Assembly: GCA_038244685.1 (NCBI GenBank) | Contig: JBBRTD010000001.1 | Span: forward strand, 259,569 to 323,568 | From: Minisyncoccia bacterium | GTDB lineage: Bacteria > Patescibacteriota > Minisyncoccia > Phycocordibacterales > UBA9973 | Direction of reading: 5' to 3' | Length of the DNA: 64,000 nt | Shown here: positions 1-61,034 of the stretch, piece by piece | Numbering within the stretch: position 1 is the stretch's first letter | Layout of the letters: every line of letters begins with the position of its first letter | The notes under the pieces: model-generated | What the model was told of the DNA's origin: nothing | The model's input: only the letters and a program-made list of their open reading frames with translations | Database searches by the model: none | Made by a program: the position numbers and the translations under genes

Positions 1-1893
1 ACAAATACAAACCCTGATGCACTAGATGAATTAAATAAAATAAAAGATGAGTCGTCATGGGGAAGACTTGTAAATAATGAAAATATTTGGAGAAGTATTT
101 ATATGAGCGCTGGGTATGGAGCTCGAGGTGCAACTCATGCAACTTTAGGATTTTTTGCTGCACCATTAGTATCAGGGGTGGTTGGGGGAATCAGAGCAAG
201 AAGAAAAGCTAATGAAAATATAAATAAAGCTTTTAGCGAGGGAACAAAAGAAGAAACTTTTCTAGAAAGGAAAGAGAACGGCAAGAGTGGTATTTTTGAA
301 AACAAAAATTTAAATCAAGGAATAGTCTCAAGTATTTTTTCTGGTAAAAAAGTTAACACCAAAGAAGTGGCGGCTTTTGTGGACGCAGATAGCCAAAAAC
401 AAAGAATCAATAATCTTATAAATAAAATTAACAGTACAGAAAATGGCAAAGAGAAAACATTATTATTGTCACAGCTTTTAGCTCGTATAGAATATATTGA
501 ATTAAAACAACAACAAGGGCTAATAAATTACGGGAACAAAAACCCGATTGGTAAAAATTATGAGTTATTTAAATCTCTAAGTGAAGCCTATGTCGTCTCC
601 GCAAGTATAAGTAATTTAGGACTAGAAATGACCAAGGGAATGAAGGATGATATCCTAGAAAGAGAAACTTTAATTAAAAGTGTTATGGCTAAAAATGAAG
701 CCGCTTTCGGAAAAGGAATCGCTCAATATAAAAACGAAGAAATGTTACGAGGGGCGGCAGTAGCAGGAGGCTTCGCTATTCTAGGTGGCCTTATTCGAGG
801 CATAATACAACACGATGACATTCCAAACGGAGTTCACTCTAATAATGAAATATCAGCAGACAGACAACACCAAATAAATGAAGCTTTGATAAAAGGACAT
901 GATACTCCCTTGGTAAAGCATTTAAATATTGAAGCAATAGCCGACCATGGACAAGGAGCTATTTCAACATTAAGAGAACTTCAAAGAAACCTGAGAGCTG
1001 AATATGGCACTAATTTAGAAAGTGCACCCACAAGTGTAAAACATATTTTAAATACAGACCCTCACAAGCTAGCCCAAGAGTATGGCATGTATAAACCAGG
1101 CAGTGACGCCGAAAGCGCCTTCATTAAATCTGGTTCATCTTTCAAGGTAGATGGCAATGGTAATGTAACTTATCATGAAGTTGGAGGTCACAATGATATT
1201 GTGCTTGAAAAAGGAAATGAGATAAAAGTAAATACAGCCTATGAAGGAAGAATGGCAGATACAGATCACTCTGGTTTAAAAACAGAAACAAATAATATAG
1301 GAGAATCATCTGAATTGTACAAAGTTCCTCCCCAGGTGAGTCCACTAACCGGGGAATTAGCTGGAACTCAAACAGAAGTAACAAATTTAATTGATAATCC
1401 TTATAAAGTTCCAACACAGGTAAGTCCTTTAATTGATGATTCGGTGGGACAACAAAATACAACTACAAATGCAATTGATAACCAATATAAAGTTCCAACA
1501 CAAATAAGTCCTTTGGTGGACGAAGAAAAAGTAATTAATTCTCCCGTTAAAAATTTAGAATCTTCATCACTGGGAACAGATTTTGCTCGTGAAATAAAAA
1601 TTAATTCTGAAGAAAATTTAAAACATATTTTCCCGACAGAAAAATTAATGGAAACTTATGATTATATTAAATCCAATGTTTCTGCTGAAAAATTAATTGC
1701 ATTAAGCAGAGGTGAGGGAGTAGCAGATGCATACAAACCGCTTGTCGCTTATATCGATAAATTGAAAGATGTTTCTGGTTTTAAGCCAATCGGAAAGTCA
1801 TTAATAAATGAAGCAGAATCAATCTCAGACTATATTTTGAGGGCCTCGAAAAAGGCAGCAGAAATGGGAAGATTAGATGAGATTAAATTTTAA
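1..1893 (+). CDS. Hypothetical protein, 5'-truncated at the window edge. Frame 1 is open from position 1 with no stop before the annotated ATG at 103. Contains three tandem YKVP(T/P)QVSPL repeats of about 30 aa.
   Basis: Translation of 1..102 in the same frame as the 103..1893 ORF has no stop codon. The repeat peptides are visible in the translation. No recognisable catalytic motif. Confidence 0.6.
   Translation, partial: TNTNPDALDELNKIKDESSWGRLVNNENIWRSIYMSAGYGARGATHATLGFFAAPLVSGVVGGIRARRKANENINKAFSEGTKEETFLERKENGKSGIFENKNLNQGIVSSIFSGKKVNTKEVAAFVDADSQKQRINNLINKINSTENGKEKTLLLSQLLARIEYIELKQQQGLINYGNKNPIGKNYELFKSLSEAYVVSASISNLGLEMTKGMKDDILERETLIKSVMAKNEAAFGKGIAQYKNEEMLRGAAVAGGFAILGGLIRGIIQHDDIPNGVHSNNEISADRQHQINEALIKGHDTPLVKHLNIEAIADHGQGAISTLRELQRNLRAEYGTNLESAPTSVKHILNTDPHKLAQEYGMYKPGSDAESAFIKSGSSFKVDGNGNVTYHEVGGHNDIVLEKGNEIKVNTAYEGRMADTDHSGLKTETNNIGESSELYKVPPQVSPLTGELAGTQTEVTNLIDNPYKVPTQVSPLIDDSVGQQNTTTNAIDNQYKVPTQISPLVDEEKVINSPVKNLESSSLGTDFAREIKINSEENLKHIFPTEKLMETYDYIKSNVSAEKLIALSRGEGVADAYKPLVAYIDKLKDVSGFKPIGKSLINEAESISDYILRASKKAAEMGRLDEIKF
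1318..1520 (+). repeat. In-frame tandem repeats (3 x about 90 nt) encoding YKVPxQVSPL(I/T/V)D... units within the first ORF.
   Basis: Repeated peptide units seen directly in the translation. Confidence 0.6.
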
Positions 1894-1937
1894 TTTCTGT
1901 TAAGTGAAAAATTAAATAAAATGTTACAATAGGAGTC

Positions 1938-3869
1938 ATGCAATATATTGATTCATTAAATGACAAACAAAAAGAGGCAGTCCTTTATACAGAGGGGCCT
2001 CTTTTGATAGTAGCGGGTGCGGGTGCAGGTAAAACAAAAACAATAACACACCGAATAATACACTTAATCCACGAGGGTATTGATCCATCGACTATTTTAG
2101 CTGTTACCTTTACCAACAAAGCAGCGAAAGAAATGCGGGATAGAGTAATGTCACTACTTGAAGATAAAATACATGGAATAGTTTCTCCAATTAAAAGCGG
2201 AGGTGTCCCTTTTATTTCTACTTTTCACTCATTAGGGGTTCATATTATAAAAGAAAATGCTCATCTTATAGGACTCACAAAACACTTCTCGATAATAGAT
2301 GAGAGCGATGCAATTTCAATTATAAAGGATGTTATGAGAGAGCATGATATAGATCCAAAGCAGCACGAGCCACGTAAAATAAAAAGTATGATATCCAAAG
2401 CCAAGGGTGATTTTATTCAATTAGAAAGTTATCGAGCAGGAGTCACTAATAGCCTTCAGAGTATTGTGGCTCTTATTTGGGGTGGCTACGAAGCCAGACT
2501 TAAAAAAGAAAAAGGGTTAGATTTTGATGATTTGCTGTTAGAGTCAGTTTTAATTTTGCGTAAATTTCCGGAAGTAAAAAATAAATATCAAGAAAAGTGG
2601 CAATATGTTCATATTGATGAGTATCAAGATACAAATGAAGTTCAATATGAAATGACAAAACTTTTAGTCGGAAAAAAAGAAAATATTTGCGTCGTCGGAG
2701 ATACCGATCAAAATATTTACAGTTGGAGAGGAGCTAATATAAAAAACATGCTTCATTTCGAAAAAGATTACCCAAGTGTAAAAATAGTTATGCTTGAACA
2801 AAATTATCGTTCGACCGGTAATATTATTGAAGCGGCAAATAGTGTCATTGAAAAAAATCAATATCGAGTTCCCAAAACTTTATTTACAAAAAATATTAAT
2901 GGCGAACAAATAGTTGTTTGTGAAGCTTATGATGAAGTAAGTGAAGCTCAATTTGTGGCTAGCGAAATTGATGAATTACTAAAAGAAAATAAACCAGAAC
3001 ATATCGCGATTCTATATCGTGCAAACTTTCAATCAAGAGTTTTGGAAGAATCCTTGCTTAATAAACAAATTCCTTATCAAGTTTTAGGCATTAAATTTTT
3101 TGATCGTCGAGAAATTAAAGACATAATATCTTATATAAAAGCTAGCTTAAATAAAGAAAGCCTCTCTGATGTCAAAAGAATTATAAATACACCAGCTCGT
3201 GGAATTGGAAAGGTAACCCTAACTAAACTTTTTGCTGGTCAATTTACAGACTTACCTGCAAGCATGCAAGGAAAAATTAATTTATTTTATGTTCTCCTTG
3301 AAGACATTCATTTATATATAGATACACATAAACCATCAGAAGTTATTAAATATATAATTGAACGAAGTGGATTGGAAAAAGATTTATCTAACAGTACAAA
3401 TGAAGATTTAGAAAAACTAGAAAACATGAAAGAGCTTGTGACTTTGTGTATTAAGTATGATGAAGAAGAAGATGGAATCGAAAAATTACTGGAAGATGCT
3501 TCACTTTGTAGCGACCAGGATAGTTTAATAAATAAAGAAAAAACTGGCGGGGTTAGACTTATGACAGTTCATGCATCCAAGGGATTAGAATTTAAATATG
3601 TTTTTGTAACAGGTCTTGAACAAGATCTTTTTCCTCATGCAAGGGCCGGAAAGGGAACCAAAGAAGACAAAGAAGAAGAGAGAAGACTTTTCTATGTAGC
3701 GCTAACAAGAGCAGAAAAAAAATTATACTTAACTTATGCATCATTGCGAACAATATTTGGAATGAAACAAGTAAATACTCCAAGTGAATTTATTTATGAT
3801 ATTCCAGTTCACTTAACAGAATTTAGACAAAGTAGCTCAAGAAACGGAGATAAAATAGTTTACTTGTAA
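1938..3869 (+). CDS. uvrD: Superfamily 1 DNA helicase of the UvrD/PcrA/Rep type.
   Basis: Walker A GAGAGKTKT near the N-terminus, then VTFTNKAAKEMRDR and DEYQDT motifs. Length 643 aa fits the family. Confidence 0.9.
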   Translation: MQYIDSLNDKQKEAVLYTEGPLLIVAGAGAGKTKTITHRIIHLIHEGIDPSTILAVTFTNKAAKEMRDRVMSLLEDKIHGIVSPIKSGGVPFISTFHSLGVHIIKENAHLIGLTKHFSIIDESDAISIIKDVMREHDIDPKQHEPRKIKSMISKAKGDFIQLESYRAGVTNSLQSIVALIWGGYEARLKKEKGLDFDDLLLESVLILRKFPEVKNKYQEKWQYVHIDEYQDTNEVQYEMTKLLVGKKENICVVGDTDQNIYSWRGANIKNMLHFEKDYPSVKIVMLEQNYRSTGNIIEAANSVIEKNQYRVPKTLFTKNINGEQIVVCEAYDEVSEAQFVASEIDELLKENKPEHIAILYRANFQSRVLEESLLNKQIPYQVLGIKFFDRREIKDIISYIKASLNKESLSDVKRIINTPARGIGKVTLTKLFAGQFTDLPASMQGKINLFYVLLEDIHLYIDTHKPSEVIKYIIERSGLEKDLSNSTNEDLEKLENMKELVTLCIKYDEEEDGIEKLLEDASLCSDQDSLINKEKTGGVRLMTVHASKGLEFKYVFVTGLEQDLFPHARAGKGTKEDKEEERRLFYVALTRAEKKLYLTYASLRTIFGMKQVNTPSEFIYDIPVHLTEFRQSSSRNGDKIVYL

Positions 3870-3914
3870 AACAGACGTTGGACGTCTATAACAAATAGAT
3901 GCTACTATACACAT

Positions 3915-4718
3915 ATGATTTACAAAGCTAAAAAATCGATGGGGCAAAATTTCCTAAAATCAGCTGAAGCTCTTCGAAAGATGTGTGAAGCAGGGGAGGT
4001 AAATGATACTGACACTATAATAGAGATCGGTCCAGGAAAGGGGGCTTTAACCGAAAAACTCCTAGAAAAAGCCAAATTAGTCATTGCTGTTGAAAAAGAC
4101 CGGGATTTAATGGATATTCTGTTGGAAAAATTTGAAAATGAGATAAAAATTGGTAAATTAGTGCTACTAAATGAGAACATTTTGTATTTTGACCCGATAA
4201 AATATGGTCTAAATGAGGGTGAATATAAAATAATCGCTAATATTCCATACAATATAACAGGTGCCATCATTAAAAGATTCTTATCTGAGGTAAATAAACC
4301 AAAGATTATGACCCTTTTGGTTCAAAAAGAGGTAGCAGAACGCATTGTTGCCCGCGATAAAAAAGAAAGTATTCTATCTTTAAGCGTCAGAGCCTATGGA
4401 ACACCACACTATATAATGAAAGTTCACAAAAGATTTTTTTCGCCATCTCCTAAGGTAGACTCAGCTATTATTTCTATAAACAATATTTCAAACAACTTTT
4501 TTATTGACAAAAAGGCAGAAGATTCATTTTTTAAACTCATAAAAGCTGCTTTTGCTCACAAAAGAAAAGTTTTGCGTAAAAATTTAGAAGAAATAGCTCC
4601 TATCACAATTATTGATGAAATGTATGAAAATCTAAAAATAGACTCTAAAATACGAGCAGAAGATTTATCTTTTTCGGTTTGGTTTAAAATGCTAGAATTT
4701 TTTAGTATAAAAATCTAG
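3915..4718 (+). CDS. rsmA: 16S rRNA (adenine1518/1519-N6) dimethyltransferase RsmA/KsgA.
   Basis: GQNFL motif near the N-terminus and SAM-binding IEIGPGKGALT. Length 267 aa. Confidence 0.9.
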   Translation: MIYKAKKSMGQNFLKSAEALRKMCEAGEVNDTDTIIEIGPGKGALTEKLLEKAKLVIAVEKDRDLMDILLEKFENEIKIGKLVLLNENILYFDPIKYGLNEGEYKIIANIPYNITGAIIKRFLSEVNKPKIMTLLVQKEVAERIVARDKKESILSLSVRAYGTPHYIMKVHKRFFSPSPKVDSAIISINNISNNFFIDKKAEDSFFKLIKAAFAHKRKVLRKNLEEIAPITIIDEMYENLKIDSKIRAEDLSFSVWFKMLEFFSIKI

Positions 4719-4752
4719 TAAGTTTTCTTATTTGGTTGTATAATAAATAGAT

Positions 4753-5250
4753 ATGAAACATTTATTTGCCATCTCTGCTATCTTTTTCAGTATAATGCTA
4801 TCATTGTTCAGTTTTAATATTGCTGATGCAAGTATTACAAACAAATTAACTAAATCATTTGGAGGAAAAATTTTGATAACACCAATTCCTGGTGTTATCT
4901 GTATTGGTGTGGGACAAGCCGTATATATGAATAGTAATATAGGCGGAGCTATTAATGCAGCCAAAAGTGCAACGTCTTCAGCTACTGGTGGAGAAAAAGC
5001 TTTATCTGTATTGGGGGGTATTTATGGAATGATACCTACATATACAACAAATCCATTAAGAAAGCCTATAATAAGTAGGTTTATTCTTGGAACAGAGAAA
5101 TTAATTCCTGACTTTAAAACATGTAAGATCGGTAATATTCCAATACCCGTACTTAGAACAACAAGCAATTACGGTATTTCATCTCCAACCCCCACCCCAA
5201 ATACGAATACAGGAATAATTAGTGGCCAATCAGTTATTAATAATGAATAA
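4753..5250 (+). CDS. Small secreted or membrane protein with a signal peptide and Gly-rich hydrophobic segments; possible pilin-like subunit.
   Basis: N-terminal signal peptide (MKHLFAISAIFFSIMLSLFSFNIADA). TGnTATAAT box at 4737..4744, 8 nt before the ATG. Confidence 0.5.
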   Translation: MKHLFAISAIFFSIMLSLFSFNIADASITNKLTKSFGGKILITPIPGVICIGVGQAVYMNSNIGGAINAAKSATSSATGGEKALSVLGGIYGMIPTYTTNPLRKPIISRFILGTEKLIPDFKTCKIGNIPIPVLRTTSNYGISSPTPTPNTNTGIISGQSVINNE

Positions 5251-6106
5251 ATATCTTCCTAGTAAACAATTTATTGCTCGACTAATAATAATACTAATTG
5301 TTGTTATTTTTATTTGGGGTTTATATCAAATTCCTAAATTATTTAGAAAAAATAAAAATACATCTCAAAACCCAACAACACTACTTGTTAAAGATTTAAT
5401 TCAAAAAGATAGTAATGATAATGGTATTGCTGATTGGGAAGAGGGATTATGGGGTCTTAATCCGGAGAAAGATGGAGCTTCAAATAAAGAATTTATTTTG
5501 GCTAAACGTTTAGCATTAGCAAAAGATAATGCCTCAGCTGTTGATGGAGGAGGAGCAGATTCATCAGAAAATGACGCACTTTCAAGAGAAGTGTTTGCTC
5601 TTATCTTATCCCTTCAACAGTCAGGCAGTTTAAATTCTGAATCAATGAAATCAATTTCTGAATCTGTCGGTCAAAATATTGTTCCCAATGACATCGCAGA
5701 CATTTACACAAAAAATATGGTTAAGATTGGGGGAACTGAAGCCGAATATTATATAGCCTTTAAAAATCTAGTAGAAAAATACCAAGACAAAGGTATGGGT
5801 AGCGAACTTAGTTTTGTGGCTCAAGGGCTCGAAAATAAAGACCCCCAAGCTTTATATGCAGCCAAAACAGTTGCTGTTTTTTATAGAGAGTTTGGCCAAG
5901 CATTAATAAAAACACCAAGTCCTCTGACTCTTGCTTCAACCAATCTTAGCCTTGCTAATAATTATGAAAAGGTAGCGCAAACAATAGAAGGATTTTCAAA
6001 CGTATTAAATGACCAGATAACAGGAATGAGATCTTTGATTAATTATAAAAAATATAGCGATAAGATAGTTGCTGACATAACAAAACTTTCAGACAATTTA
6101 AAATAA
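5243..6106 (+). CDS. Membrane-anchored hypothetical protein with an N-terminal transmembrane helix. The start is moved to the internal ATG that overlaps the upstream stop codon.
   Basis: ATGAATAA start/stop overlap at 5243..5250. Hydrophobic segment LIIILIVVIFIWGLY. Confidence 0.5.
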   Translation: MNKYLPSKQFIARLIIILIVVIFIWGLYQIPKLFRKNKNTSQNPTTLLVKDLIQKDSNDNGIADWEEGLWGLNPEKDGASNKEFILAKRLALAKDNASAVDGGGADSSENDALSREVFALILSLQQSGSLNSESMKSISESVGQNIVPNDIADIYTKNMVKIGGTEAEYYIAFKNLVEKYQDKGMGSELSFVAQGLENKDPQALYAAKTVAVFYREFGQALIKTPSPLTLASTNLSLANNYEKVAQTIEGFSNVLNDQITGMRSLINYKKYSDKIVADITKLSDNLK

Positions 6107-6132
6107 GTGATATAATAAAATAGTAAATTAAT

Positions 6133-8295
6133 ATGAAAGACCCAATCATAAAAAGAACAATCTCAGGAATTATTATATTAGCATTTTTCTCTTCGTCTAT
6201 ATTAATACCATCGAATGCCGTTGCTGCAACCAAGGGTTTAAATTGGAATAATCCAAACCAGGGGAATGCTTTTAAATTAGACGCTTCGACTCTTTTGAAT
6301 GCTAATAATTTAATGGCCGTTGTTGGATGTACTGGTATTGTAGATACAGCAACAGATGCCGCGATGAGATTGGTCAGTAAGGTTACCACAAAAGTATTAA
6401 ATAAATTAATTGGGGGGGGAGAGGTTTCTGTAACTGATTCTCAATTAGCTTCACAACAAAAAATTAGTGACAAAAGACAAGCCTGTTTTGATGGACTTGC
6501 ATACGCTCTTGCAAAACAACAATTAGTCAGCATGACAAAATCAACTATGAATTGGGTTAATAGTGGATTTAACGGCGACCCAATGTATGTCAGAGACATA
6601 AATTCACTAACAAATAGTATTGAGGGTAAAATATTAGAAAAAGAAGTTAATTTGTTTAAAAATTCTCCAAATGGATCTGGAGATTACCCTTATGGTAGAA
6701 ACTTTGCTCTATCTCAGATAAGTTCTTTTAGACTTGGACAAAATCCAAACAACGCTCTCAAACAAAATCTTTCAAATTATTTATCAGGGGATACAGGTAG
6801 TGGTAGATATGTAGAAAGCTATACAAACAATTTCTCAATGGGTGGGTGGAATGGATGGTTAGCCTTTACTCAGATGCCACAGAATAATCCTCTTGGTTTC
6901 GACATGATTGCCAGTCAAAAACTTGCCGACAGTCAAAAAAAAGAAGTAACAAATACAAAAACGGAAGTAGCTAGAAATGGTGGAATGCTTGATCAAAAGA
7001 AATGTGTTCTCTGGAATATGATAGATGATGCAACTGGTGAATACATAATGGAGGATGTCTACAATGAAGATGGAGTTACCTCTGTAATATCAACAACCAC
7101 TAACCCTATGCCAGAAGACGAATGTGTTAATTATGAGACAGTCACTCCAGGTAGTTTAATAAAAGATAAAGTTTCAAAGTATCTTAATTCAGGAGAAACA
7201 CAACTTGAACTTGCCGATTCTTTAAATGAAGTTTTATATTCTATCTTTGGTAACCTTATATCAAAATTCCAACAAAATGGTCTTTCAAGTCTGTCATCAA
7301 ATACAACTGATTTTTCTAATGTCTCTGATGGTATTGGTTCAAATAAAATAGTTGATGCAAATGGAAAATATATTACGAGTGGAAATGATGGAGGAGTTGA
7401 CCCTAGTTCAAACTTTGATATTACTTCCGATCTAGGAAGCGGTAGTACTACATGTTTAAATGATCAACCAAATGGAATAGGTGCGGATAAAAATACTTGC
7501 GGAATAATTGAAACCCAACAAAAATATATCGCAACTGTTAAAAACCTATTTCCTCCGCTTGAAAAAGTTATGCTAAAGCTAGGGGAGCTTGATTATTGTA
7601 TACCAGGGCCAAATCCAAATTGGCAAGAAAACTCTACAAATGCTGCAAATGCTTACACAAATTGGCTAAATAGTATTGCTGTGGTTGGTTCTTCGTCTGG
7701 ATTTTTAGGCTCAAGTAATTACACAATTACCATACCTGACATTAATTCAGCAGCTTCTCAAAATTATATAAATAGTATAGATAATAACCTTACTTATTGG
7801 AAAGATCTTCAAAGTAGCTGGTATTTCAATTTAGGATTTGGAGATCTAACTGCTGGAGTTTCATCAAGCGCCCAAGATAGAATTACCAATAGAGTTGAGC
7901 CAAGAATGGCCGAATTAGAAACAGCCGAAGCTGAATATAAAGTTACAGCAGATGCCCGTTATGGTTTTAAGAGTTCTATGCAAACTGAATTTCTGAACAA
8001 TGGAACAGCTACTATGACTGAAAATTCAGACTATTTAGCAATGGCGCAAACAGGATTAAACATTACAAAAGATATATCTTCTTATGCCGAAAGTATTGGT
8101 GATATGACAACAACTTACCAGAGTCGAATAATAGAAACAACAGCCAATATATACAAACTCAAAAAATTAAAAGAGAAGATAGATATCATTGTTACCAGGG
8201 CTCAAAAACTTAGAGATGAAACAAGAGCTTCAAGTGGAGCACCTGCTATAACTAGGGTATGTCTTGCAAATGAAAAAACAACAATTACTCAATAA
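6133..8295 (+). CDS. Large secreted hypothetical protein (720 aa) with a signal peptide.
   Basis: Signal-peptide-like N-terminus. TGATATAAT box at 6109..6116. No recognisable enzymatic motif. Confidence 0.6.
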   Translation: MKDPIIKRTISGIIILAFFSSSILIPSNAVAATKGLNWNNPNQGNAFKLDASTLLNANNLMAVVGCTGIVDTATDAAMRLVSKVTTKVLNKLIGGGEVSVTDSQLASQQKISDKRQACFDGLAYALAKQQLVSMTKSTMNWVNSGFNGDPMYVRDINSLTNSIEGKILEKEVNLFKNSPNGSGDYPYGRNFALSQISSFRLGQNPNNALKQNLSNYLSGDTGSGRYVESYTNNFSMGGWNGWLAFTQMPQNNPLGFDMIASQKLADSQKKEVTNTKTEVARNGGMLDQKKCVLWNMIDDATGEYIMEDVYNEDGVTSVISTTTNPMPEDECVNYETVTPGSLIKDKVSKYLNSGETQLELADSLNEVLYSIFGNLISKFQQNGLSSLSSNTTDFSNVSDGIGSNKIVDANGKYITSGNDGGVDPSSNFDITSDLGSGSTTCLNDQPNGIGADKNTCGIIETQQKYIATVKNLFPPLEKVMLKLGELDYCIPGPNPNWQENSTNAANAYTNWLNSIAVVGSSSGFLGSSNYTITIPDINSAASQNYINSIDNNLTYWKDLQSSWYFNLGFGDLTAGVSSSAQDRITNRVEPRMAELETAEAEYKVTADARYGFKSSMQTEFLNNGTATMTENSDYLAMAQTGLNITKDISSYAESIGDMTTTYQSRIIETTANIYKLKKLKEKIDIIVTRAQKLRDETRASSGAPAITRVCLANEKTTITQ

Positions 8296-44480: not shown

Positions 44481-44482
44481 CA

Positions 44483-44959
44483 ATGAAGAAATCTATTGTT
44501 TCAGTTCTCATTCTTCCCGATATACGCTCGGCACTAAATGTCGGAGCGATTTTTCGTACAGCCGATGCTGTTGGTATAAATAAAATTTATCTTATTGGTT
44601 GTACCCCAAGACCGACAGATCAATTCGGACGTATTCAAAAGGATATAAGTAAAAGTGCCCTTGGAGCTGAGACTTGGATACCTTGGGAATATAAAGAAAA
44701 ACTACTTCCTTTAATAAAAACCTTAAAGAAACAGGGCTATGAAGTCGTGGCCCTTGAGCAAGATATAAACTCGATTGATTATCGTAAATATAAAAAACCA
44801 GAGAAACTGGCCTTTATTTTAGGTCCTGAAGTTACAGGTCTTGATAAAAAAATCCTTAAAAATTGTGACAAAATAGTCGAGATACCAATGTATGGCAGAA
44901 AAGAATCCTTAAATGTTTCAGTAGCTTGCGGTATTTCTTTATTTAGGATACTAAGATAG
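44483..44959 (+). CDS. SpoU/TrmH-family RNA 2'-O-methyltransferase. The ORF-track N-terminal extension across the tRNA is rejected.
   Basis: SpoU motifs NVGAIFRTADAVGI, GPEVTGLD and IPMYGRKESLNVSVACGISLF. Confidence 0.75.
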   Translation: MKKSIVSVLILPDIRSALNVGAIFRTADAVGINKIYLIGCTPRPTDQFGRIQKDISKSALGAETWIPWEYKEKLLPLIKTLKKQGYEVVALEQDINSIDYRKYKKPEKLAFILGPEVTGLDKKILKNCDKIVEIPMYGRKESLNVSVACGISLFRILR

Positions 44960-48488: not shown

Positions 48489-48527
48489 ACAATAGAAAAA
48501 GCCAGATAAATCTGGCTTTTTCTATTG
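48489..48527 (-). terminator. Hairpin terminator downstream of the minus-strand tRNA-Arg.
   Basis: aatagaaaaagccagat-aaa-tctggctttttctatt. Confidence 0.6.
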
Positions 48528-48599
48528 TGGTCCTGGCAGGAATCGAACCTGCATCGCAACTTCCGCAAAGTTGCGTCCTATCCATTGAACGACAGGACC
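48528..48599 (-). tRNA. tRNA-Arg with apparent anticodon GCG (isotype call tentative).
   Basis: Hand-folded: acceptor GGTCCTG/CAGGACC, anticodon stem CAACT/AGTTG, loop TTGCGGA, T-arm GCAGG-TTCGATT-CCTGC. Confidence 0.65.
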
Positions 48600-50834: not shown

Positions 50835-50930
50835 CTTTTAATTATAACACGGCACTGGTTTATTTATTAAATTTTTATACAACGCACATATGAAAAAATC
50901 TCAACAATCGTTGAGATTTTTTCATATGTG

Positions 50931-51017
50931 CGGAAGGGGGGAGATTCGAACTCCCGAGGAGCTTTCACCCCTGACAGTTTTCAAGACTGTTCCTTTCAAC
51001 CACTCAGGCACCCTTCC
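50931..51017 (-). tRNA. tRNA-Ser (anticodon TGA) with a long variable arm.
   Basis: Hand-folded: GGAAGGG acceptor, anticodon stem ACAGT/ACTGT, loop CTTGAAA, long variable arm, T-arm GGGAG-TTCGAAT-CTCCC. Followed on the minus strand by a 23-bp perfect palindrome (50886..50932). Confidence 0.85.
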
Positions 51018-55316: not shown

Positions 55317-55391
55317 TGGTGCCCTCGGCAGGAATCGAACCTGCAATAACGGCTTAGAAGTCCGCAGTTATATCCATTTAACTACAAGGGC
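55317..55391 (-). tRNA. tRNA-Arg (anticodon TCT). CCA encoded.
   Basis: Hand-folded: acceptor GCCCTTG/CGAGGGC, anticodon loop CTTCTAA with one non-canonical pair in the anticodon stem, T-arm GCAGG-TTCGATT-CCTGC. Confidence 0.65.
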
Positions 55392-55399
55392 AAAACTAG

Positions 55400-56893: not shown

Positions 56894-56977
56894 GCGCGGG
56901 TGTTGAAACTGGTAGACAAGCATCCTTGAGGTGGATGTGCCCTTACGGGTGTGGAGGTTCAAGTCCTCTCCCGCGCA
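56894..56977 (+). tRNA. tRNA-Leu (anticodon GAG) with a long variable arm.
   Basis: Hand-folded: GCGCGGG acceptor, anticodon stem CATCC/GGATG, loop TTGAGGT, variable arm, T-loop TTCAAGT. CCA not encoded. Confidence 0.85.
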
Positions 56978-57165
56978 CAATAAGAAAAACCTTTTTAAAA
57001 AGGTTTTTCTTATTGTGCGCGGAATGAAGAACCTACGTTCTTCATGTGAGAGGAATTGAAAACCTTGAGTATATTTTCTTAAATTTAATAATTTTAGAAA
57101 ATACGAAAGGTATACTGGTCATGTAATGACCAAGAAGCGTACTCGCGTTCCTCTCCCGCGCACAA
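56978..57165 (+). repeat. tRNA-linked roughly 188-nt structured element (copy 1). It ends with a direct 17-nt copy of the tRNA-Leu 3' end.
   Basis: Hairpin aagaaaaacc-ttttt-aaaaaggtttttctt. Inverted tRNA-end copy attgtgcgcgg. Hairpins at 57024..57045, 57073..57102 and 57117..57131. gtactcgcg at 57139..57147. ttcctctcccgcgcacaa at 57148..57165. Confidence 0.5.
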
Positions 57166-57193
57166 AGTTAGAGATATAAGATATAATAGGAGC

Positions 57194-57766
57194 ATGATTG
57201 CCATTTTAATTAATTTATTTTACTTAATAGTATTTTTGGTTTTTTTTATTGTTCTCATTTTATTATTTTTCTGGATGTGGAGCGCAATTAAGGCTAAAGT
57301 TCCATTTGTTCCAGTTTCTAATAATATTTTAAAAGATATAAAGGAAGCCCTTCAGCTTAAAGAGGGCAGTGTTGTTTATGATTTAGGTTGTGGTGATGGC
57401 AGAGTACTTTTTTATCTTTACAAAAATAACCCAAATCTAAAATACATTGGGGTGGAAAATAGCCCCTTTCCATATTTTTTGGCTTATATACTTAATTATT
57501 TTCATAAGAAAAGATATAAAAGTAATATTGAAATTATAAAAGGAGATTTTTTTAATATAGATTTATCAAATGCGACTCATGTTTTCACATATCTTTATCC
57601 AAACATTATGGATGATTTAATGCCTAAACTTAGCAAAGAGCTTAACCCAGGAACCCGCCTTGTTTCGGTTTCTTTTCATTTTACAAATAAACGCGAGATA
57701 AAAGAGATAGATTTAAAGAGAGGAAAATATAAACTTTCGCAAAAAATATATGTTTATGATTTTTAA
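57194..57766 (+). CDS. Class I SAM-dependent methyltransferase with an N-terminal transmembrane helix.
   Basis: Motif I VYDLGCGDGRV. Confidence 0.6.
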   Translation: MIAILINLFYLIVFLVFFIVLILLFFWMWSAIKAKVPFVPVSNNILKDIKEALQLKEGSVVYDLGCGDGRVLFYLYKNNPNLKYIGVENSPFPYFLAYILNYFHKKRYKSNIEIIKGDFFNIDLSNATHVFTYLYPNIMDDLMPKLSKELNPGTRLVSVSFHFTNKREIKEIDLKRGKYKLSQKIYVYDF

Positions 57767-57847
57767 AAGAGTAGTTTTGAATAATTGATAAATATTATTT
57801 AAGTGCGTAGTTTACTACATAAGAAATCGGTAGTATAATAGCCATGT

Positions 57848-60274
57848 ATGATAACTCCAGATTTAATTGAGTATATAAAAACACAACTAAATAAAAATAT
57901 TTCGAAGGATTTAATTATTCAACGTTTAGAAGAAGCCGGTTGGCGGATGGAAGATATAGAAGAGGGTATTACTGAGGCATCTCCAGCTAAGGTAGAAATT
58001 AAGGTTGCGCCTGTTCAAGAAGAAAAGATTGTTATCGTTGATAATTATAAAGAAACACCTCTAGTAAAAGAAGAAATTATTAAAAAAACAGAAGAGCCAA
58101 CTGAACCCTTAGAGATTAAAAAGGCGGTTGATCCGTACAGAGAATTACCAGATGGAACTGAACCTGTTGTCGCAAAAGAGGAAGTAAAAAGTACCCCAAC
58201 GAGTAGCTTGGATTTATTGAAAATTTGGGTTCCGACAACGATTAAACCAAAGAATGAAGAAATAAAGATAGAGCCAGAGGTAAAGATTGAAGCAGAAGTT
58301 AAAAAAGAGCCAGAAATAAAACCTGAAATAAAAATAGAGCCAGAAGCAGAAATAGAATATATTGGCGAACCAGAAAAAACAGAAGCAACTCCTTCTTTGT
58401 CTGAAATGGGGTCACAAAATCAAATACAAATTGAATCAACTAAAACAGAAGTTGGAAGTGAAGCAATTTCGAGTATTCCAATCATAGAATTAAATAAGTT
58501 AAATTTGCCTATTATTGAAAATAAACAGCCAGATGCTTCGCTTATCTCTGCTTTTAATCCGATGTTGAGTGGAGACACATCTTCTCTTTCATCAGAAATT
58601 AAACAACCAGAAGAAAAAACAATCGTTGATGATTTCATACCAACAATAAATAAAAGTCCTTTTTCTAAGCCGATTGCACAAACAATACTAGAACCTCAAA
58701 AATTACAACCGATTAAGAGTAATATAGTTCAGAATGGAATGTCGGATATTTTACCTAGGAATGCAATGATTTCATCATATTCCCAGGCATTATTGTCTTC
58801 AACTAAAGAGAAAGAAGAGATAGTTTCATCTCTTCCCAAAAAACATAAATTTCTAAAATTTGTAGTTATTTTATTTGTTATAAGTCTTATTAGTGGTATG
58901 ATTTTTGCTTTTGTAGAGGGCTATCTAAAAATTCCTGGTTCTAATTTTAGTTTTTCTGTTGTTAAAAAAGACCCCCAAGCAGTAATGATGGAAGCACCTT
59001 TTTCTATCTCCAAATTAAAATCTTATAAAGTAGAAACAAATATAAATATTTCATCTCCGTCTCTTTCTAATATTAGCATTGGTCTATCTAGCGGAAAGGT
59101 GGTTGATTCTGCCGACCGAGACTCTGTCTCTATTATAGCTAAGGGCTCAGCTAATCATGTTGACGATAAGCTACTTTTTGATTATTTATTAAATTTCAAA
59201 AGTTCTATTTTGAAAAATGAGATTATTAGTAATTGGAAATATGATGGGTCAGATTTGCATGTAAGCGTTCCTGATACAAGCGAGATTTTTAAGAAAGATG
59301 CACCGAAGCCTACCATCATATCCATGAAGCCTAATGATATTGGTTTAATAGAAGGGGAATTATCTCCATCACTTCAAAATATAATAAAGAAGATAGATAT
59401 TTATAATATTCTTTCGAATGACGTTCCACTGTATGTTAAAAATGAAACATCTTCAATTTTAAAAGAATTTATTACAGGCCTTCAGTATACTGAAAAAGGA
59501 GAAGAGAGTATTCATGGAGTTGATACTTACCATTATGAGATGTCGACCGACCGTCAATCAACAAAGAAATTATTGAGTTCATTAGTAGATCTTTTTGTTA
59601 TGGAATTACCAGCAGATCAGAAGAAAAATTTAGACGAAGCACTTGGAGCTTCTGCCTTTAGTTCATTTGATGTATGGGTTGGGAAAAATGATGATAATCT
59701 TTATCAAATAAAATTTACTTTGAATGCACCTTTGTCTAAAGTTTTAGGATTAAATGATAGTGGAATTGCAGGGAATGAAGTTAAGTTAGATTGGACTACA
59801 ACTTACTATGATTTAAATGTAGACAATAAAATTGTCATGCCGGACGAGCAAGTAAATATGCAAGGTTTTATAAAAAATATTAGAGATATAAAAATTAAAA
59901 ATACTATTTCTGCTTTTAAGCCTCAGGCTAATTCATTAAGAAACGCAATAGGTTCTTATGGTAATAGATCAAATCCTGCTGGAAGTTGTACTAATCCAAA
60001 TCCTGGCTCGTTATTCTCTCCACAGGGTCACCCAAGGAGTGCAGAGGGGGCAATTAGTTCTATCTCAAGCTCAATGATTGCTTTATTGTCAGAAACAAAC
60101 GGAGCTGGTTCTTGCTATTCCACTTCAGGAGCATGGGCCTTGTCTGCTCCTCTTGCTACAAGTTCAGATTCTTTAGTCCCTAATCCAAATGATGTTAATT
60201 ATTTCTATTGCACCGACAGTAGTGGAAATACAAAAACTCTTTCTGCTCCGATAACAGGAGTAGAGTGTAAATAA
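57848..60274 (+). CDS. Large bitopic membrane protein: cytoplasmic N-terminal about 330 aa with (E/K)P(E/I)(V/I)K repeats, one central transmembrane helix, and an extracellular C-terminal about 450 aa.
   Basis: Central helix FLKFVVILFVISLISGMIFAFV. TATAAT at 57834..57839, 8 nt before the ATG. Confidence 0.6.
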   Translation: MITPDLIEYIKTQLNKNISKDLIIQRLEEAGWRMEDIEEGITEASPAKVEIKVAPVQEEKIVIVDNYKETPLVKEEIIKKTEEPTEPLEIKKAVDPYRELPDGTEPVVAKEEVKSTPTSSLDLLKIWVPTTIKPKNEEIKIEPEVKIEAEVKKEPEIKPEIKIEPEAEIEYIGEPEKTEATPSLSEMGSQNQIQIESTKTEVGSEAISSIPIIELNKLNLPIIENKQPDASLISAFNPMLSGDTSSLSSEIKQPEEKTIVDDFIPTINKSPFSKPIAQTILEPQKLQPIKSNIVQNGMSDILPRNAMISSYSQALLSSTKEKEEIVSSLPKKHKFLKFVVILFVISLISGMIFAFVEGYLKIPGSNFSFSVVKKDPQAVMMEAPFSISKLKSYKVETNINISSPSLSNISIGLSSGKVVDSADRDSVSIIAKGSANHVDDKLLFDYLLNFKSSILKNEIISNWKYDGSDLHVSVPDTSEIFKKDAPKPTIISMKPNDIGLIEGELSPSLQNIIKKIDIYNILSNDVPLYVKNETSSILKEFITGLQYTEKGEESIHGVDTYHYEMSTDRQSTKKLLSSLVDLFVMELPADQKKNLDEALGASAFSSFDVWVGKNDDNLYQIKFTLNAPLSKVLGLNDSGIAGNEVKLDWTTTYYDLNVDNKIVMPDEQVNMQGFIKNIRDIKIKNTISAFKPQANSLRNAIGSYGNRSNPAGSCTNPNPGSLFSPQGHPRSAEGAISSISSSMIALLSETNGAGSCYSTSGAWALSAPLATSSDSLVPNPNDVNYFYCTDSSGNTKTLSAPITGVECK

Positions 60275-60275
60275 T

Positions 60276-60695
60276 ATGCAAATTATATTTATTATTTCTA
60301 TTTGTCTTTTTAGTCTTTTGGGCTTCTTTATTTCGAGGTATATTTATCAAAACAAAAAGTTAAACAAGAAAGTTATATGCCCAAATAAGTCAAAATGCGA
60401 TCGGGTTATTTATTCTTCATATTCGAAAATATTTGGTTTGGGAGTAGAGCAAATAGGGATGGTGTACTATGCTTTTATTGGTTTTGCTTTTGGTTTCGCT
60501 TACGTCTTCAGCCTCTATAATTTTGGAATTAAATTTATTCTATTTGGAATAACTATTTGTGCTTTGTTATTTTCTATATATCTTATTACGGTTCAAGTCT
60601 TAATTATAGAAAAAATATGCATGTGGTGTTTAATGTCATCCATTATATCTTTTGCTATATTTGTTTTGGCCTATTTTTACACATTTGCAATATAA
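60276..60695 (+). CDS. VKOR-like (vitamin K epoxide reductase family) membrane thiol oxidoreductase.
   Basis: Loop cysteines C-x6-C (CPNKSKC), then ...SKIFGLGVEQIGMVYYAF. CxxC (CMWC) in a C-terminal transmembrane helix. Confidence 0.6.
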   Translation: MQIIFIISICLFSLLGFFISRYIYQNKKLNKKVICPNKSKCDRVIYSSYSKIFGLGVEQIGMVYYAFIGFAFGFAYVFSLYNFGIKFILFGITICALLFSIYLITVQVLIIEKICMWCLMSSIISFAIFVLAYFYTFAI

Positions 60696-60772
60696 TATTT
60701 ATACCTAGATTTTTTAAGCATTTTCTGGTATAAATGGTTAGTTACTATTATTTAAGGTAATAGTATAGATAT

Positions 60773-60848
60773 GGTGCTTATAGTGTAATGGTTAGCACTA
60801 GAGTTTGTGGAACTCTCGGTCTGGGTTCAAATCCCAGTAGGCACCCCA
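60773..60848 (+). tRNA. tRNA-His (anticodon GTG) with the G-1 nucleotide and CCA encoded.
   Basis: Hand-folded: G-1, then GTGCTTA acceptor, anticodon stem AGAGT/ACTCT, loop TTGTGGA, T-arm CTGGG-TTCAAAT-CCCAG, discriminator C, then CCA. Confidence 0.88.
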
Positions 60849-61034
60849 TAACAAAAACCCCTGAAAAGGGTTGTTTTTGTTTTGGGGTGCCCAAGCAAAT
60901 GAACTGCTTCATTTGCGTCTGGGGATTTGAAGACCTTGAACTTGGATTTTGAAACTCTGTTTCAAAATCCGTGAAAGGTGTACAGATTCTGTAAGAATCA
61001 AAAAGTGTACTCGCGGTCCCAGTAGACACAACCC
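60849..61034 (+). repeat. tRNA-linked roughly 186-nt structured element (copy 2), homologous to the one after tRNA-Leu. It ends with a degenerate copy of the tRNA-His 3' end.
   Basis: Hairpin caaaaaccc-ctgaaaa-gggttgttttt. Inverted tRNA-end copy ttttggggtgcc. Hairpins at 60895..60916, 60944..60970 and about 60983..60999. gtactcgcg at 61007..61015. gtcccagtagacacaaccc at 61016..61034. Confidence 0.5.

Follow-up and report, generated by a model that had tools for sequence, protein, structure and literature searches.

Short structured elements that immediately follow tRNA and tmRNA genes of Patescibacteria

Our analysis revealed a large, previously undescribed family of elements located directly after tRNA and tmRNA genes of Patescibacteria. 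In the window, meaning the whole 64-kb stretch of DNA that was analysed, the family has only two copies, after tRNA-Leu and tRNA-His, both found where the first-pass annotation had placed them. The key peculiarity of the family, missed by that annotation, is that a scaffold common to the loci carries three interleaved segments matched to the adjoining tRNA, on both strands.

Architecture of the two copies

Each copy in the family is made up of five parts: the antisense of tRNA nt 54-76 and of the trailer, cut by the hairpin HP1 exactly at the T-stem/acceptor junction, a conserved core (P2/HP2, GAAAGGTGTAC, HP3), tRNA nt 56-59, the hairpin HP4 (GCG-UACU-CGC) and a direct copy of tRNA nt 60-76. 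The Leu copy comprises the following features:

56894..56977, + strand: tRNA-Leu(GAG) (ARAGORN; Rfam tRNA, 45.7 bits; sequence)
56958-56964, 56965-56969, 56970-56976 and 56977, + strand: its T-loop, T-stem 3′ strand, acceptor 3′ strand and discriminator
56971..57022, + strand: helix A, a 52-nt perfect palindrome with an A/T-rich hairpin at the tip, in which anti-trailer and anti-acceptor (57012-57022) are the pairing partners of tRNA nt 67-76 plus trailer
57024..57045, + strand: HP1, ATGAAGAAC-CTAC-GTTCTTCAT, between anti-nt 66 and anti-nt 65
57048..57060, + strand: anti-T-stem GAGAGGA and antisense T-loop ATTGAA, 5′ strand of the closing stem P1
57061..57115, + strand: core, with HP2 at 57070-57103 and the conserved block GAAAGGTATAC at 57105-57115
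57062-57066 with 57107-57111, + strand: P2 (ACCTT with AAGGT), then the GAG/CGA tandem G.A motif
57117..57131, + strand: HP3, GGTCAT-GTA-ATGACC (family loop CUGUAAG)
57132..57147, + strand: J3/4 (AAGAA), HP4 (GCG-TACT-CGC, 57137-57146) and G
57149..57165, + strand: direct repeat TCCTCTCCCGCGCACAA, which matches 56964-56980 exactly and thereby repeats nt 60-76 of tRNA-Leu; the 3′ strand of P1 consists of its first 6 to 7 nt

The corresponding features of the His copy are:

60774..60848, + strand: tRNA-His(GTG), CCA encoded (ARAGORN, sequence, Rfam tRNA)
60826-60832, 60833-60837 and 60838-60844, + strand: its T-loop, T-stem 3′ strand and acceptor 3′ strand
60840..60891, + strand: helix A, formed by the tRNA 3′ end and trailer with TGGGGTGCC (60883-60891) as the anti-acceptor, and with a terminator-like hairpin at the tip (60856-60872)
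60895..60916, + strand: HP1, GCAAATGAA-CTGC-TTCATTTGC, a 22-mer identical in copies at Gln, Ser and His tRNAs in other genomes
60919..60931, + strand: anti-T-stem CTGGGGA and antisense T-loop TTTGAA
60932..60983, + strand: core, with HP2 inside P2 and the conserved block GAAAGGTGTAC at 60973-60983
60933-60937 with 60975-60979, + strand: P2 (ACCTT with AAGGT)
60985..60999, + strand: HP3, GATTC-TGTAA-GAATC
61000..61016, + strand: J3/4 (AAAAA), HP4 (GTG-TACT-CGC, 61005-61014, one U.G pair) and GG
61017..61034, + strand: direct copy of tRNA-His from nt 60, with TCCCAGTAG intact and the acceptor part decayed (ACACAACCC), in agreement with the family-wide pattern

The perfect 26-bp arms previously described at tRNA-Leu correspond to the palindrome of helix A, and the direct tRNA-end copy at Leu, the three hairpins and the conserved blocks, as sequence, are likewise present. 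The inverted tRNA copy also exists, but instead of about 11 nt it spans about 23 nt, from nt 76 back to nt 54, taking in the T-stem and T-loop, and HP1 splits it exactly between nt 66′ and 65′. The direct copy is real, but starts at T-loop nt 60, with the copy of nt 56-59 preceding it across HP4. Two blocks had been taken for single-stranded: GAAAGGTRTAC is indeed conserved, but its AAGGU pairs with ACCUU as P2 beneath hairpin 2, and GTACTCGCG contains the small hairpin HP4, for which compensatory variants AUG-UACU-CAU occur.

The motif GAAAGGTRTAC-N(10-24)-GTACTCGCG occurs twice in the window (57105-57147 and 60973-61015) and in none of 100 shuffles of it. The two copies share 78% column identity in a pairwise alignment, and both fold far more stably than their shuffled versions (Leu, z = -9.5; His, z = -4.1).

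Covariation and extent of the family

Two motif scans gave at least 148 contigs with the element, all from Patescibacteria where named, holding about 197 copies among the matches listed; these follow tRNAs of about 30 anticodons as well as tmRNA, always on the same strand. The loci comprise 28 from genomes, all Patescibacteria, and at least 120 from metagenomes. A same-strand tRNA lies within 400 nt upstream for 135 of the 197 nhmmer hits among the matches listed (about 30 anticodons), while in L130 and L125 the element directly follows a tmRNA, confirmed by Rfam. Elements are about 135-190 nt long. The search of Rfam and for further copies proposed in the first-pass annotation yielded many copies and an empty Rfam result, and the phage, plasmid and viral collections and the literature searched likewise held no match to the element.

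The proposed covariation of the stems is strongly borne out. Across 111 distinct copies, 95.4% of cells are paired, and compensatory (double) changes occur in 39 of 42 pairs, including all nine pairs of HP1 and 5 to 6 of the 6 pairs of HP3; in HP4, GC/AU alternate 84/19 and CG/UA 65/33. In 75 distinct loci, helix A begins with nt 66 and its acceptor part is 96% Watson-Crick, and the anti-T-loop (block A) tracks the T-loop sequence of each neighbouring tRNA. One scaffold (HP1 100% identical, core 93-97%) adjoins tRNAs for Gln, Ser, His, Val and Leu. With about 93% Watson-Crick pairs and just 2.4% G.U, the stems would suit DNA hairpins; the excess of G.U over A.C (90 vs 53) and the better folding of the + strand, seen for 27 of 28 copies, are equally compatible with RNA. 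For helix A, the + strand is the more stable one at 65 of 75 loci. The tandem G.A motif exists on the + strand only, and the unpaired blocks are invariant, as is typical of RNA tertiary or protein contacts.

Insertion sites, arrays and genomic context

The tRNA is left intact by the element, and at the far end stands a direct repeat that extends from nt 60 to nt 76 or up to 3 nt beyond. In roughly one copy in four, the match is unbroken as far as this end point. Identity of this repeat to the tRNA is 92% at nt 60-65 vs 65% at nt 66-73, while the anti-acceptor is still 96% Watson-Crick to the functional tRNA end. At the orthologous tRNA-Leu site, recognised by one and the same methyltransferase gene downstream, L014 and L028 lack the element, as do L061, L079 and L143, whereas the window, L002, L017 and L021 have it, with differing HP2 alleles. 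L050 and L085, which are 97% identical, carry one and three units, respectively, at the same tRNA-Gln, each bounded by TCCTAGTCTCCCAGC. Tandem arrays are common, and most distal copies are truncated at the 5′ side with HP3, HP4 and the repeat retained. Core types A, A′, B and C are mixed within single arrays, all matched to one tRNA, their varied interior and common ends being reminiscent of families of non-autonomous transposons. Accessory genes (PRTase, ATP-grasp, CYTH, Imm26-like) also lie between elements, with remnants of HP4 plus repeat at their right ends. In L013, a large-serine-recombinase island occupies the same nt 59/60 boundary of tRNA-Tyr, which shows that integrating DNA makes use of this boundary in these genomes. 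The element at the orthologous tRNA-His locus retains 80-86% nucleotide identity, compared to 67-75% for flanking coding DNA, and shows compensatory changes in situ.

No ORF was found within the element and no recombinase in its flanks, in line with the earlier remark that an integrase is missing. Clustering of neighbours around the copies gave housekeeping genes only and no reverse transcriptase near any copy, and the search for a helper enzyme, an excised form or an autonomous relative, viral, phage and plasmid collections included, found none.

Origin and possible mode of propagation

We tentatively favour the reading that the two window copies are members of a small, ORF-less, non-autonomous mobile family specific for tRNA/tmRNA 3′ ends in Patescibacteria. 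The interpretation given by the first-pass annotation is partly supported. Of its three explanations, a miniature, non-autonomous tRNA-targeting family fits best, the support being copies that number in the hundreds and follow many tRNAs as well as tmRNA, the filled and empty sites, strain copy-number differences, arrays and lack of a nearby integrase. Arrays of mixed subtypes with the same ends, 5′-truncated older copies and the decaying acceptor half of the repeat also point to a non-autonomous mobile element acting in trans. According to such a model, recombination would take place at the T-loop/T-stem boundary (nt 59/60), and the functional tRNA 3′ end would then come from the element, as would the trailer and, where the lineage is A+T-rich, the terminator. 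The native 3′ end would be displaced downstream as the direct repeat, whose acceptor half then decays, while the T-stem half may be kept since it pairs with the anti-T-stem of the element in P1. The active form could be a folded single strand of + polarity, DNA or RNA, in which the antisense arm pairs with tRNA-end sequences into a duplex replica of the target, with HP1 and HP4 sticking out from opposite strands 6 bp apart. The core (P2/HP2, GAAAGGUGUAC, HP3, HP4) would be the cis-acting site for a putative enzyme encoded elsewhere in the genome. Arrays could arise by repeated insertion or unequal exchange between repeats, and the tRNA-matched arms by templating from the adjacent tRNA, at insertion or later via quasi-palindrome correction. 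However, strain copy-number differences could also stem from ordinary unequal exchange between repeats. If each element bears its own tRNA-specific arms, every pairing of a core type with a tRNA would require a lineage of its own, which counts against mobility, and we know of no recombination mechanism that rewrites interleaved arms. Conservation with compensatory change at the His locus is a functional-RNA pattern, unexpected for inert non-autonomous copies.

The deep conservation at that locus makes a serious rival of the possibility, in our view somewhat less likely, that the element is a 3′ external-spacer RNA, a structured non-coding product of the tRNA transcript which is not itself mobile. 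Small RNAs from tRNA 3′ spacers, such as 3′ETS-leuZ of E. coli, are an established category. Such an RNA would be made by read-through or terminator-less transcription, its antisense arm would pair with its own tRNA 3′ strand (helix A) or the downstream copy (P1), the core would bind a protein or act on tRNA maturation, turnover or quality control, and copies would arise by local duplication. The covariation noted in the first-pass annotation, which offered a cotranscribed small RNA as one reading, has been borne out, and the constant orientation, invariant unpaired blocks, + strand G.A motif, + strand stability and G.U excess agree with it. Some lineages have no terminator separating tRNA from element, and in L028 and L002 the element lies between two tRNAs of one operon; in such cases it must be transcribed. 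On the other hand, a canonical terminator intervenes in most A+T-rich lineages, neither a conserved promoter on either strand nor a terminator after the element was found, and the acceptor strand of the co-made tRNA would be tied up in helix A. Furthermore, the element is dispensable, as orthologous sites can be empty, G.U pairs are few, and the truncated, mixed-type arrays with decaying acceptor copies resemble selfish DNA; nor is it a cis-regulator, since the downstream gene is randomly oriented (75 co-directional vs 50 convergent).

An RNA-mediated, SINE-like retroelement appears improbable. Its intermediate would be a read-through transcript of tRNA, element and repeat; once annealed at a nick in the tRNA gene, the 3′ tRNA-end copy of this transcript would start target-primed reverse transcription, with the reverse transcriptase provided in trans. 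Site-specific non-LTR elements (R1/R2) use co-transcribed target sequence, and this likeness, together with reliance on the tRNA promoter in the same orientation, a 3′-terminal sequence equal to the target, predominantly 5′-truncated distal copies and the lack of an ORF, speaks for such an origin. Yet the reverse transcriptase is missing near all copies, read-through is limited by the upstream terminator, the mature tRNA is not the primer as the antisense arm is complementary to the genomic trailer and not to CCA, arm retargeting is left unexplained here too, and group II introns are absent from Patescibacteria (PMC13011429). A specialised terminator or 3′-processing module alone, for instance an extended RNase III or RNase Z hairpin, is very improbable. 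A terminator does lie within helix A at many loci, and in the window tRNA-Arg and tRNA-Ser, both without the element, likewise have terminator stems that overlap the tRNA end by a few nt. However, the conserved, covarying core of about 100 nt and the direct repeat beyond the terminator are needless for termination, many tRNAs, orthologous ones included, lack the element, and the units form arrays. Least credible of all is the alternative named in the first-pass annotation, in which unrelated prophages or islands once inserted at tRNA-Leu and tRNA-His and left att sites that have since decayed. Directly repeated tRNA 3′ ends are the textbook mark of att sites and genuine islands integrate at these tRNAs, as in L013, but a single conserved scaffold with compensatory changes in about 200 copies among the matches listed, in many genomes and at many tRNAs, resembles none of the phage, plasmid or viral records, and the conserved, covarying core rules such remnants out. 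Most likely, the family represents a novel type of either small mobile element or tRNA-linked RNA.

Copies in the window and fold of the element

Two copies of the element, a folded unit of about 135-190 nt, are present in the window directly 3' of two tRNA genes:

tRNA-Leu(GAG), 56894-56977, located by ARAGORN and Rfam and followed by the Leu copy
tRNA-His(GTG), 60774-60848, located by ARAGORN and Rfam and followed by the His copy

The stretches following these genes show 78% column identity in a pairwise alignment, and the motif GAAAGGTRTAC-N(10-24)-GTACTCGCG was found in the window only at 57105-57147 and 60973-61015, and in 0 of 100 dinucleotide-preserving shuffles. Single-strand folding z-scores of the two copies were -9.5 and -4.1, and the covariance model recovered just these two in the 64-kb window. 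The flanking genes are of housekeeping type (RluA-type pseudouridine synthase, ribosomal protein L19, methyltransferase, VKOR, PilM), the elements being followed downstream by the methyltransferase and by a secreted protein of unknown type.

The first-pass annotation had divided both copies into five parts, namely an A/T-tract hairpin, an inverted copy of the tRNA end, three further hairpins, conserved single-stranded blocks and a direct copy of the tRNA end, and all of them are present in the window copies. The inverted copy, described as about 11 nt long, extends over about 23 nt and is interrupted by hairpin 1, while GTACTCGCG, taken for a single-stranded block, belongs to a small hairpin, HP4. 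Hairpin 2 stands as described, with an additional stem, P2 (ACCUU/AAGGU), underneath, and the direct copy likewise, except that it starts at T-loop nt 60 (numbering according to tRNA positions). The tRNA end is indeed included in a palindrome, but terminator stems that take in a few nt of it are likewise present at the element-free tRNA-Arg(gcg) and tRNA-Ser(tga) of the window. At these two genes (48527-48599 and 50930-51017, both on the minus strand), bidirectional terminators comprise 5-6 nt of the tRNA 3' end, and the TGTGGcTCC closing the terminator copy of tRNA-Arg(gcg) may be a remnant anti-acceptor of a lost element. At tRNA-Lys(ttt), the ATG of an ORF lies 3 nt past the tRNA (44481-44500), with no spacer or terminator, and its product by eye resembles a SpoU-type RNA methyltransferase.

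In the 5' to 3' direction along the tRNA strand, the element is composed of the following parts:

Part 1, helix A: tRNA nt 66-76 and trailer paired to their antisense copy, beginning exactly at nt 66, 20-28 bp
Part 2, HP1: hairpin with the loop frequently AACUGCUU
Part 3: T-stem 3' strand and T-loop in antisense, tracking the T-loop of each neighbouring tRNA (AATCGAA vs TTCGATT; ATTTGAA vs TTCAAAT)
Part 4, P2 and HP2: RACCUU(GAG)-HP2-(CGA)AAGGU, with a tandem G.A motif
Part 5: GUAC, between HP2/P2 and HP3
Part 6, HP3: hairpin with the loop CUGUAAG
Part 7: copy of tRNA nt 56-59, between HP3 and HP4
Part 8, HP4: AAGCGUACUCGCGG
Part 9: direct tRNA copy from nt 60 onward

Helix A is capped by a canonical terminator where the genome is A+T-rich and by a mere loop of 10-19 nt in GC-richer genomes, and HP4 terminates in ...GTACTCGCGG before the nt 60 copy. 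The antisense arm pairs with the direct copy to form stem P1, a duplex replica of nt 56-76 of the tRNA gene, from whose opposite strands HP1 (at nt 65/66) and HP4 (at nt 59/60) branch off. The consensus, about 135 nt long, has a multi-branched fold.

The covariation of stems that had been noticed between the two window copies is a property of the family. In 111 distinct copies aligned to the model, standard pairing was found in 95.4% of cells, compared with 66.6% in shuffles and 33-45% with slid partners, and changes on both sides occurred in 39 of the 42 pairs. Covariation extends over the whole of HP1, HP2 and HP3 and is also seen in HP4 (GC/AU 84/19; CG/UA 65/33). Since HP1-HP4 are independent of the tRNA-derived arms, their covariation is no by-product of tRNA copying; compensatory base changes that keep helices, a generic mark of structured RNA under purifying selection, are present here. 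In folding, the plus strand was more stable in 27 of 28 cores and in 65 of 75 helix A regions, and G.U exceeded A.C outside P1 (90 vs 53), with G.U constituting just 2.4% of pairs. Such a strand signal is modest and fits a single strand of plus polarity, RNA and DNA alike.

Distribution, turnover and gene neighbourhoods

Further copies 3' of tRNAs, as looked for on the basis of the first-pass annotation, were revealed by motif and profile searches as a large family in Patescibacteria. Among species-representative genomes, the 3' motif yielded 28 loci, all in Patescibacteria (Paceibacteria, Nomurabacteria and relatives) and all directly 3' of a tRNA, and a looser motif scan of metagenome contigs added at least 120 loci. 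An nhmmer profile applied to the 149 sequences collected, these metagenome loci included, gave 197 matches, 135 of which have a tRNA on the same strand no more than 400 nt upstream; these tRNAs represent about 30 anticodons and 15 or more amino-acid identities. The other matches lie at contig ends, in second array copies, beside tRNA 3' fragments or after tmRNA, the tmRNA immediately upstream of the element being confirmed by Rfam in two contigs (L130 and L125). In Rfam 15, searched at E values up to 1, the window region matched only tRNA and chance miRNA palindromes and no further family, and core types B and C and the other loci tested had no match. The literature searched, exact motif strings included, held no relevant description of the element. 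Whichever reading of its nature holds, the family is absent from the databases and papers searched.

In regard to gain and loss, comparison of related genomes showed presence/absence polymorphism. The orthologous tRNA-Leu-methyltransferase site is empty in five contigs (L014, L028, L061, L079, L143) and filled in the window and in three others (L002, L017, L021), with HP2 alleles differing among the four. Likewise, two contigs 97% identical to each other, L050 and L085, hold one and three units, respectively, at the same tRNA-Gln, each unit delimited by TCCTAGTCTCCCAGC and the third unit of L085 having a core type unlike the others. Arrays are frequent, and their distal units are mostly 5'-truncated, with HP3, HP4 and the repeat retained. 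At least four core types share the left arm and the right end and differ in the interior:

Core type A, one of the at least four types
Core type A', GACUUUUCG...CGAAAAGUAC
Core type B, AGACGGAG...CGAGUCGGGGUCG...GUGACC
Core type C, AAAACUUUUUGACGAAAAAGUUUUAGUCGAGGUC

One array can hold several core types, every one of them matched to the tRNA of that array. Conversely, one scaffold was found beside tRNA-Gln, -Ser, -His, -Val and -Leu across genomes, with HP1 identical over 22-24 nt, the core 93-97% identical, and the interleaved arms tRNA-specific.

Furthermore, several loci have two elements at one tRNA with a single accessory gene in between, in a layout resembling cassette arrays. About five such element-gene-element arrays were found, with no integrase seen in the loci examined. 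The genes encode a phosphoribosyltransferase, an ATP-grasp enzyme, a weak Imm26-like protein and a CYTH protein, and the loci with sandwiched genes are L037:7971-8765, L015:255-1205 (the same in L036), L006:6774-7280 and L083:255-785. HP4 and repeat remnants are visible at the right ends of the sandwiched genes, and the pair of elements flanking the L037 gene shares 99% identity, with different terminator loops. The element itself contains no ORF, neighbour clustering over all loci gave no linked enzyme but syntenic housekeeping genes alone, and no recombinase family was enriched within 3 kb of the element in 148 loci.

One contig, L013, carries an island of about 6 kb (334-6650) integrated in tRNA-Tyr, which encodes a 504-aa large serine recombinase with Resolvase and Recombinase domains (388-1902, minus strand) as well as TraD/VirD4-like ATPases. 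The island repeat, TCCTACCCGGCGCAC, begins at the T-loop nt 59/60 boundary, as in the small elements, and the displaced tRNA fragment and the small element have been pushed 6 kb downstream by the island. Use of nt 59/60 of tRNA-Tyr by the island shows that DNA does integrate at this position in these organisms.

Several neighbouring sequences were observed as well. Three contigs (L072:230-330, L140 and L109) have in common, upstream of their elements, a conserved stretch of about 90 nt (GTCGCGTCGnTTTGATAnACTTAAA...) that takes the place of the tRNA body and is followed directly by a tRNA-Gln 3' fragment and the element. No Rfam family matches this stretch, which probably marks where a different integrated element ends. 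The short contig L140 also contains a SAM riboswitch (Rfam RF00162, 54 bits) at 43-152 on the minus strand, and a free-standing LAGLIDADG-like ORF (L028:1808-2485, plus strand), with homologues in three loci, adjoins an empty tRNA-Leu site.

Possible origins of the element

The tRNA-derived parts do not persist equally. In the terminal direct copy, nt 60-65 show 92% identity to the tRNA and are perfect in 50 of 72 copies, while nt 66-73 show 65% identity, being perfect in 21 of 72 and declining towards chance in the remainder; the anti-acceptor is 96% Watson-Crick against the working tRNA end. Perfect direct repeats stop at the tRNA end plus 0-3 nt, a limit reached in about a quarter of the family copies, and the Leu copy has a perfect 17-nt repeat of the tRNA 3' segment with the tRNA intact. 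In L002, the tRNA acceptor is altered at two base pairs and the antisense arm and distal copy retain the older sequence, resulting in two U.G pairs within helix A, while in L014 the anti-T-stem matches the present tRNA and the distal copy retains the allele of other genera. Taken together, these identities and the two loci indicate that the maintained helices are helix A, formed with the working tRNA end, and P1, formed with the distal T-stem part.

Our preferred reading, held tentatively, is that the element could well be a non-autonomous mobile element which targets the region from nt 59/60 to the 3'-end of tRNA and tmRNA genes. Upon insertion, the element would supply a replacement tRNA 3' end and trailer, and the native tRNA end would remain as the distal repeat. 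The working form would be a folded single strand with arms replicating the target, and a helper enzyme would act in trans. The match of the arms to each tRNA could be accounted for by a separate specialised lineage for each combination of core type and tRNA, or by the neighbouring tRNA templating the arms during or after insertion, in the latter case possibly by template-switch correction of quasi-palindromes. Writing of arms from the neighbouring tRNA is the more economical of the two, and we know of no mechanism that writes such arms. A proposal which we consider rather doubtful is self-retargeting, where the tRNA next to the element would serve, upon every insertion or later, as template for the anti-acceptor, the anti-T-arm and the sense nt 56-76, three segments that alternate with constant hairpins, and the folded strand would recognise both target strands via the replica duplex. 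If true, a handful of scaffolds could colonise any gene ending in a T-arm and acceptor, through an insertion or templated-correction mechanism without known precedent.

Alternatively, the element might be a functional RNA cotranscribed with the tRNA, which is conceivable yet on balance unlikely. At the orthologous tRNA-His locus, elements are 80-86% identical whereas the flanking coding DNA is 67-75% identical, and HP1 and HP2 show compensatory differences between genomes. In two contigs the element lies between tRNA-Val and tRNA-Arg(tct) of one operon (L028:197-352, type A without HP4; L002:3701-3798, type B), a spacing which in the window is only 7 nt (55391-55399) and contains no element, and in GC-richer lineages no terminator stands ahead of it. 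Judging by this arrangement, copies inside tRNA operons or without a preceding terminator would have to be transcribed. On the other hand, a good terminator precedes most A+T-rich copies, neither a promoter nor a downstream terminator is conserved, and the acceptor strand of the cotranscribed tRNA would itself be tied up in helix A. The orientation of downstream genes is random (75 co-directional vs 50 convergent), which speaks against the functional RNA and led to rejection of a cis-regulator of the downstream gene. A terminator or processing module alone is very unlikely. The terminator form (G+C-rich hairpin and U tract), seen in many loci including the His copy, is confined to the helix A tip and does not cover the core, and it is absent from the Leu copy and from GC-richer lineages. 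An RNA-mediated, SINE-like element is improbable, and a primer-binding site for mature tRNA was rejected since the antisense arm is complementary to the genomic trailer and not to CCA. Viral contigs, GenBank phages and PLSDB plasmids contained nothing similar, so a phage or plasmid origin was rejected; that the copies are scars of prophage att sites is hardly credible.

Several other candidates were likewise rejected. A minus-strand RNA gene sharing a bidirectional terminator conflicts with the greater stability of the plus strand in 27 of 28 copies, with the tandem G.A motifs and G.U excess, both on the plus strand, and with the lack of promoter-like conservation downstream in the sequences compared. 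A minus-strand small protein (window 60778-61029, 83 aa; similar in L037) conflicts with hairpin length changes that are not multiples of three and with covarying stems. Antisense ORFs of 76-83 aa over the element (window 60778-61029, L037:7470-7700 and L037:8767-9012, all on the minus strand) are almost certainly spurious, and gene callers are likely to label them hypothetical proteins. Known ribozyme, T-box, tmRNA-like and Y-RNA-like families gave no Rfam match, and by eye the hammerhead core is absent. A simple tandem-inversion duplication of the tRNA end is at odds with a direct repeat that ends with the tRNA and with a foreign conserved core at the junction.

Relation to known systems and significance

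The element resembles several systems, but it lacks the features by which integrative elements, MITEs, attC sites, omega RNAs and any Rfam family are defined. tRNA-targeting integrative elements of the tyrosine or serine recombinase type have a direct tRNA 3' repeat at both ends, leave the tRNA intact, carry or adjoin a recombinase and excise as a circle, and their integrase-less derivatives include cis-mobilisable elements, att-flanked remnants and tycheposon-type arrays. Shared with them are the 3' part of a tRNA or tmRNA gene as target, the intact tRNA, the direct 3'-end repeat, tandem accretion at one tRNA and presence/absence polymorphism. Unlike them, the element is about 135-190 nt long without integrase or any gene, represents a conserved folded scaffold with covarying hairpins, adds an antisense target copy interleaved with these hairpins, and serves about 30 different tRNAs with a single scaffold; no recombinase was found in or beside it, in line with the missing ORF, the housekeeping flanks and the 148 loci without enrichment.

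Integron attC sites are imperfect hairpins of 57-141 nt with R''/R' core sites (RYYYAAC...GTTRRRY), in ORF-alternating arrays next to intI. As in attC and the CTXphi (+)ssDNA attP hairpin, structure is conserved over sequence, stems are almost purely Watson-Crick, an internal arm pairs with the recombination-junction sequence and the fold imitates a duplex target; arrays in which single accessory genes alternate with elements recall those of attC. However, the element consensus lacks the RYYYAAC/GTTRRRY core sites, no IntI was seen in the loci examined, Xer is not known to take part, a tRNA gene serves as partner site, the conserved unpaired blocks are large, and of the target only the nt 56-76 side is copied in the fold. 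MITEs have terminal inverted repeats common to all copies and a short target-site duplication of fixed length at unrelated sites. Like MITEs and REPIN/RAYT palindromic repeats, the element is short, ORF-less, highly structured and present in many copies, with subfamilies sharing ends and differing in the middle, and trans mobilisation is proposed for it. It differs in having no family-wide terminal inverted repeats, its ends being an antisense tRNA arm and HP4, in having target-derived arms, in having no fixed-length duplication of arbitrary targets, the flanking repeat always being a tRNA end, and in being strictly located at tRNA/tmRNA 3' ends instead of dispersed.

TnpB/IscB omega RNAs are encoded at the end of IS200/605-type elements, next to tnpB or iscB. 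The element is similar to them in its structured scaffold of about 130 nt, followed by about 16 nt identical to the target, which like a guide would update with the insertion site. Yet no TnpB, IscB or TnpA lies beside any copy, no Rfam match exists, a guide matching the upstream tRNA, which stays intact, would target its own locus, and the antisense arm has no counterpart. Retron msr-msd RNAs have a reverse transcriptase gene immediately 3'; in the window this place is taken by the methyltransferase and secreted protein genes, and neighbours vary across loci. With neither reverse transcriptase nor TnpB nearby, group II intron, retron and omega RNA were all rejected; in Patescibacteria, TnpB-like genes are present and group II introns absent (PMC13011429). 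tRNA 3' external-transcribed-spacer sRNAs and tRNA-like mimics (3'ETS-leuZ, YrlA-type modules) share with the element the location in a tRNA 3' spacer, but the element is dispensable and forms arrays. As in such mimics, a hairpin occupies the D/anticodon-arm branch position and P1 repeats the 3' strand of the T-stem, sometimes that of the acceptor too; unlike in them, the acceptor half is decayed in most copies, and in place of the tRNA 5' strand there is an antisense copy that extends through T-loop and trailer.

Patescibacteria (CPR) represent a large share of bacterial diversity. Non-coding DNA is very scarce in their tiny genomes, and in spite of this a conserved element follows many of their tRNA/tmRNA genes. 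In genome annotation, the element accounts for spurious ORF calls in antisense and for fragments of tRNA ends 3' of tRNA genes, and marks sites of accessory-gene accumulation in these genomes. If it is an RNA, it would be a new tRNA-linked class able to base-pair with its own tRNA along the acceptor/T-arm strand. Should it be mobile, it would represent a new class of tRNA-targeting element whose target recognition looks base-pair programmable on both strands, and arms that follow the target would be of interest for mobile-element biology and possibly for tool design.
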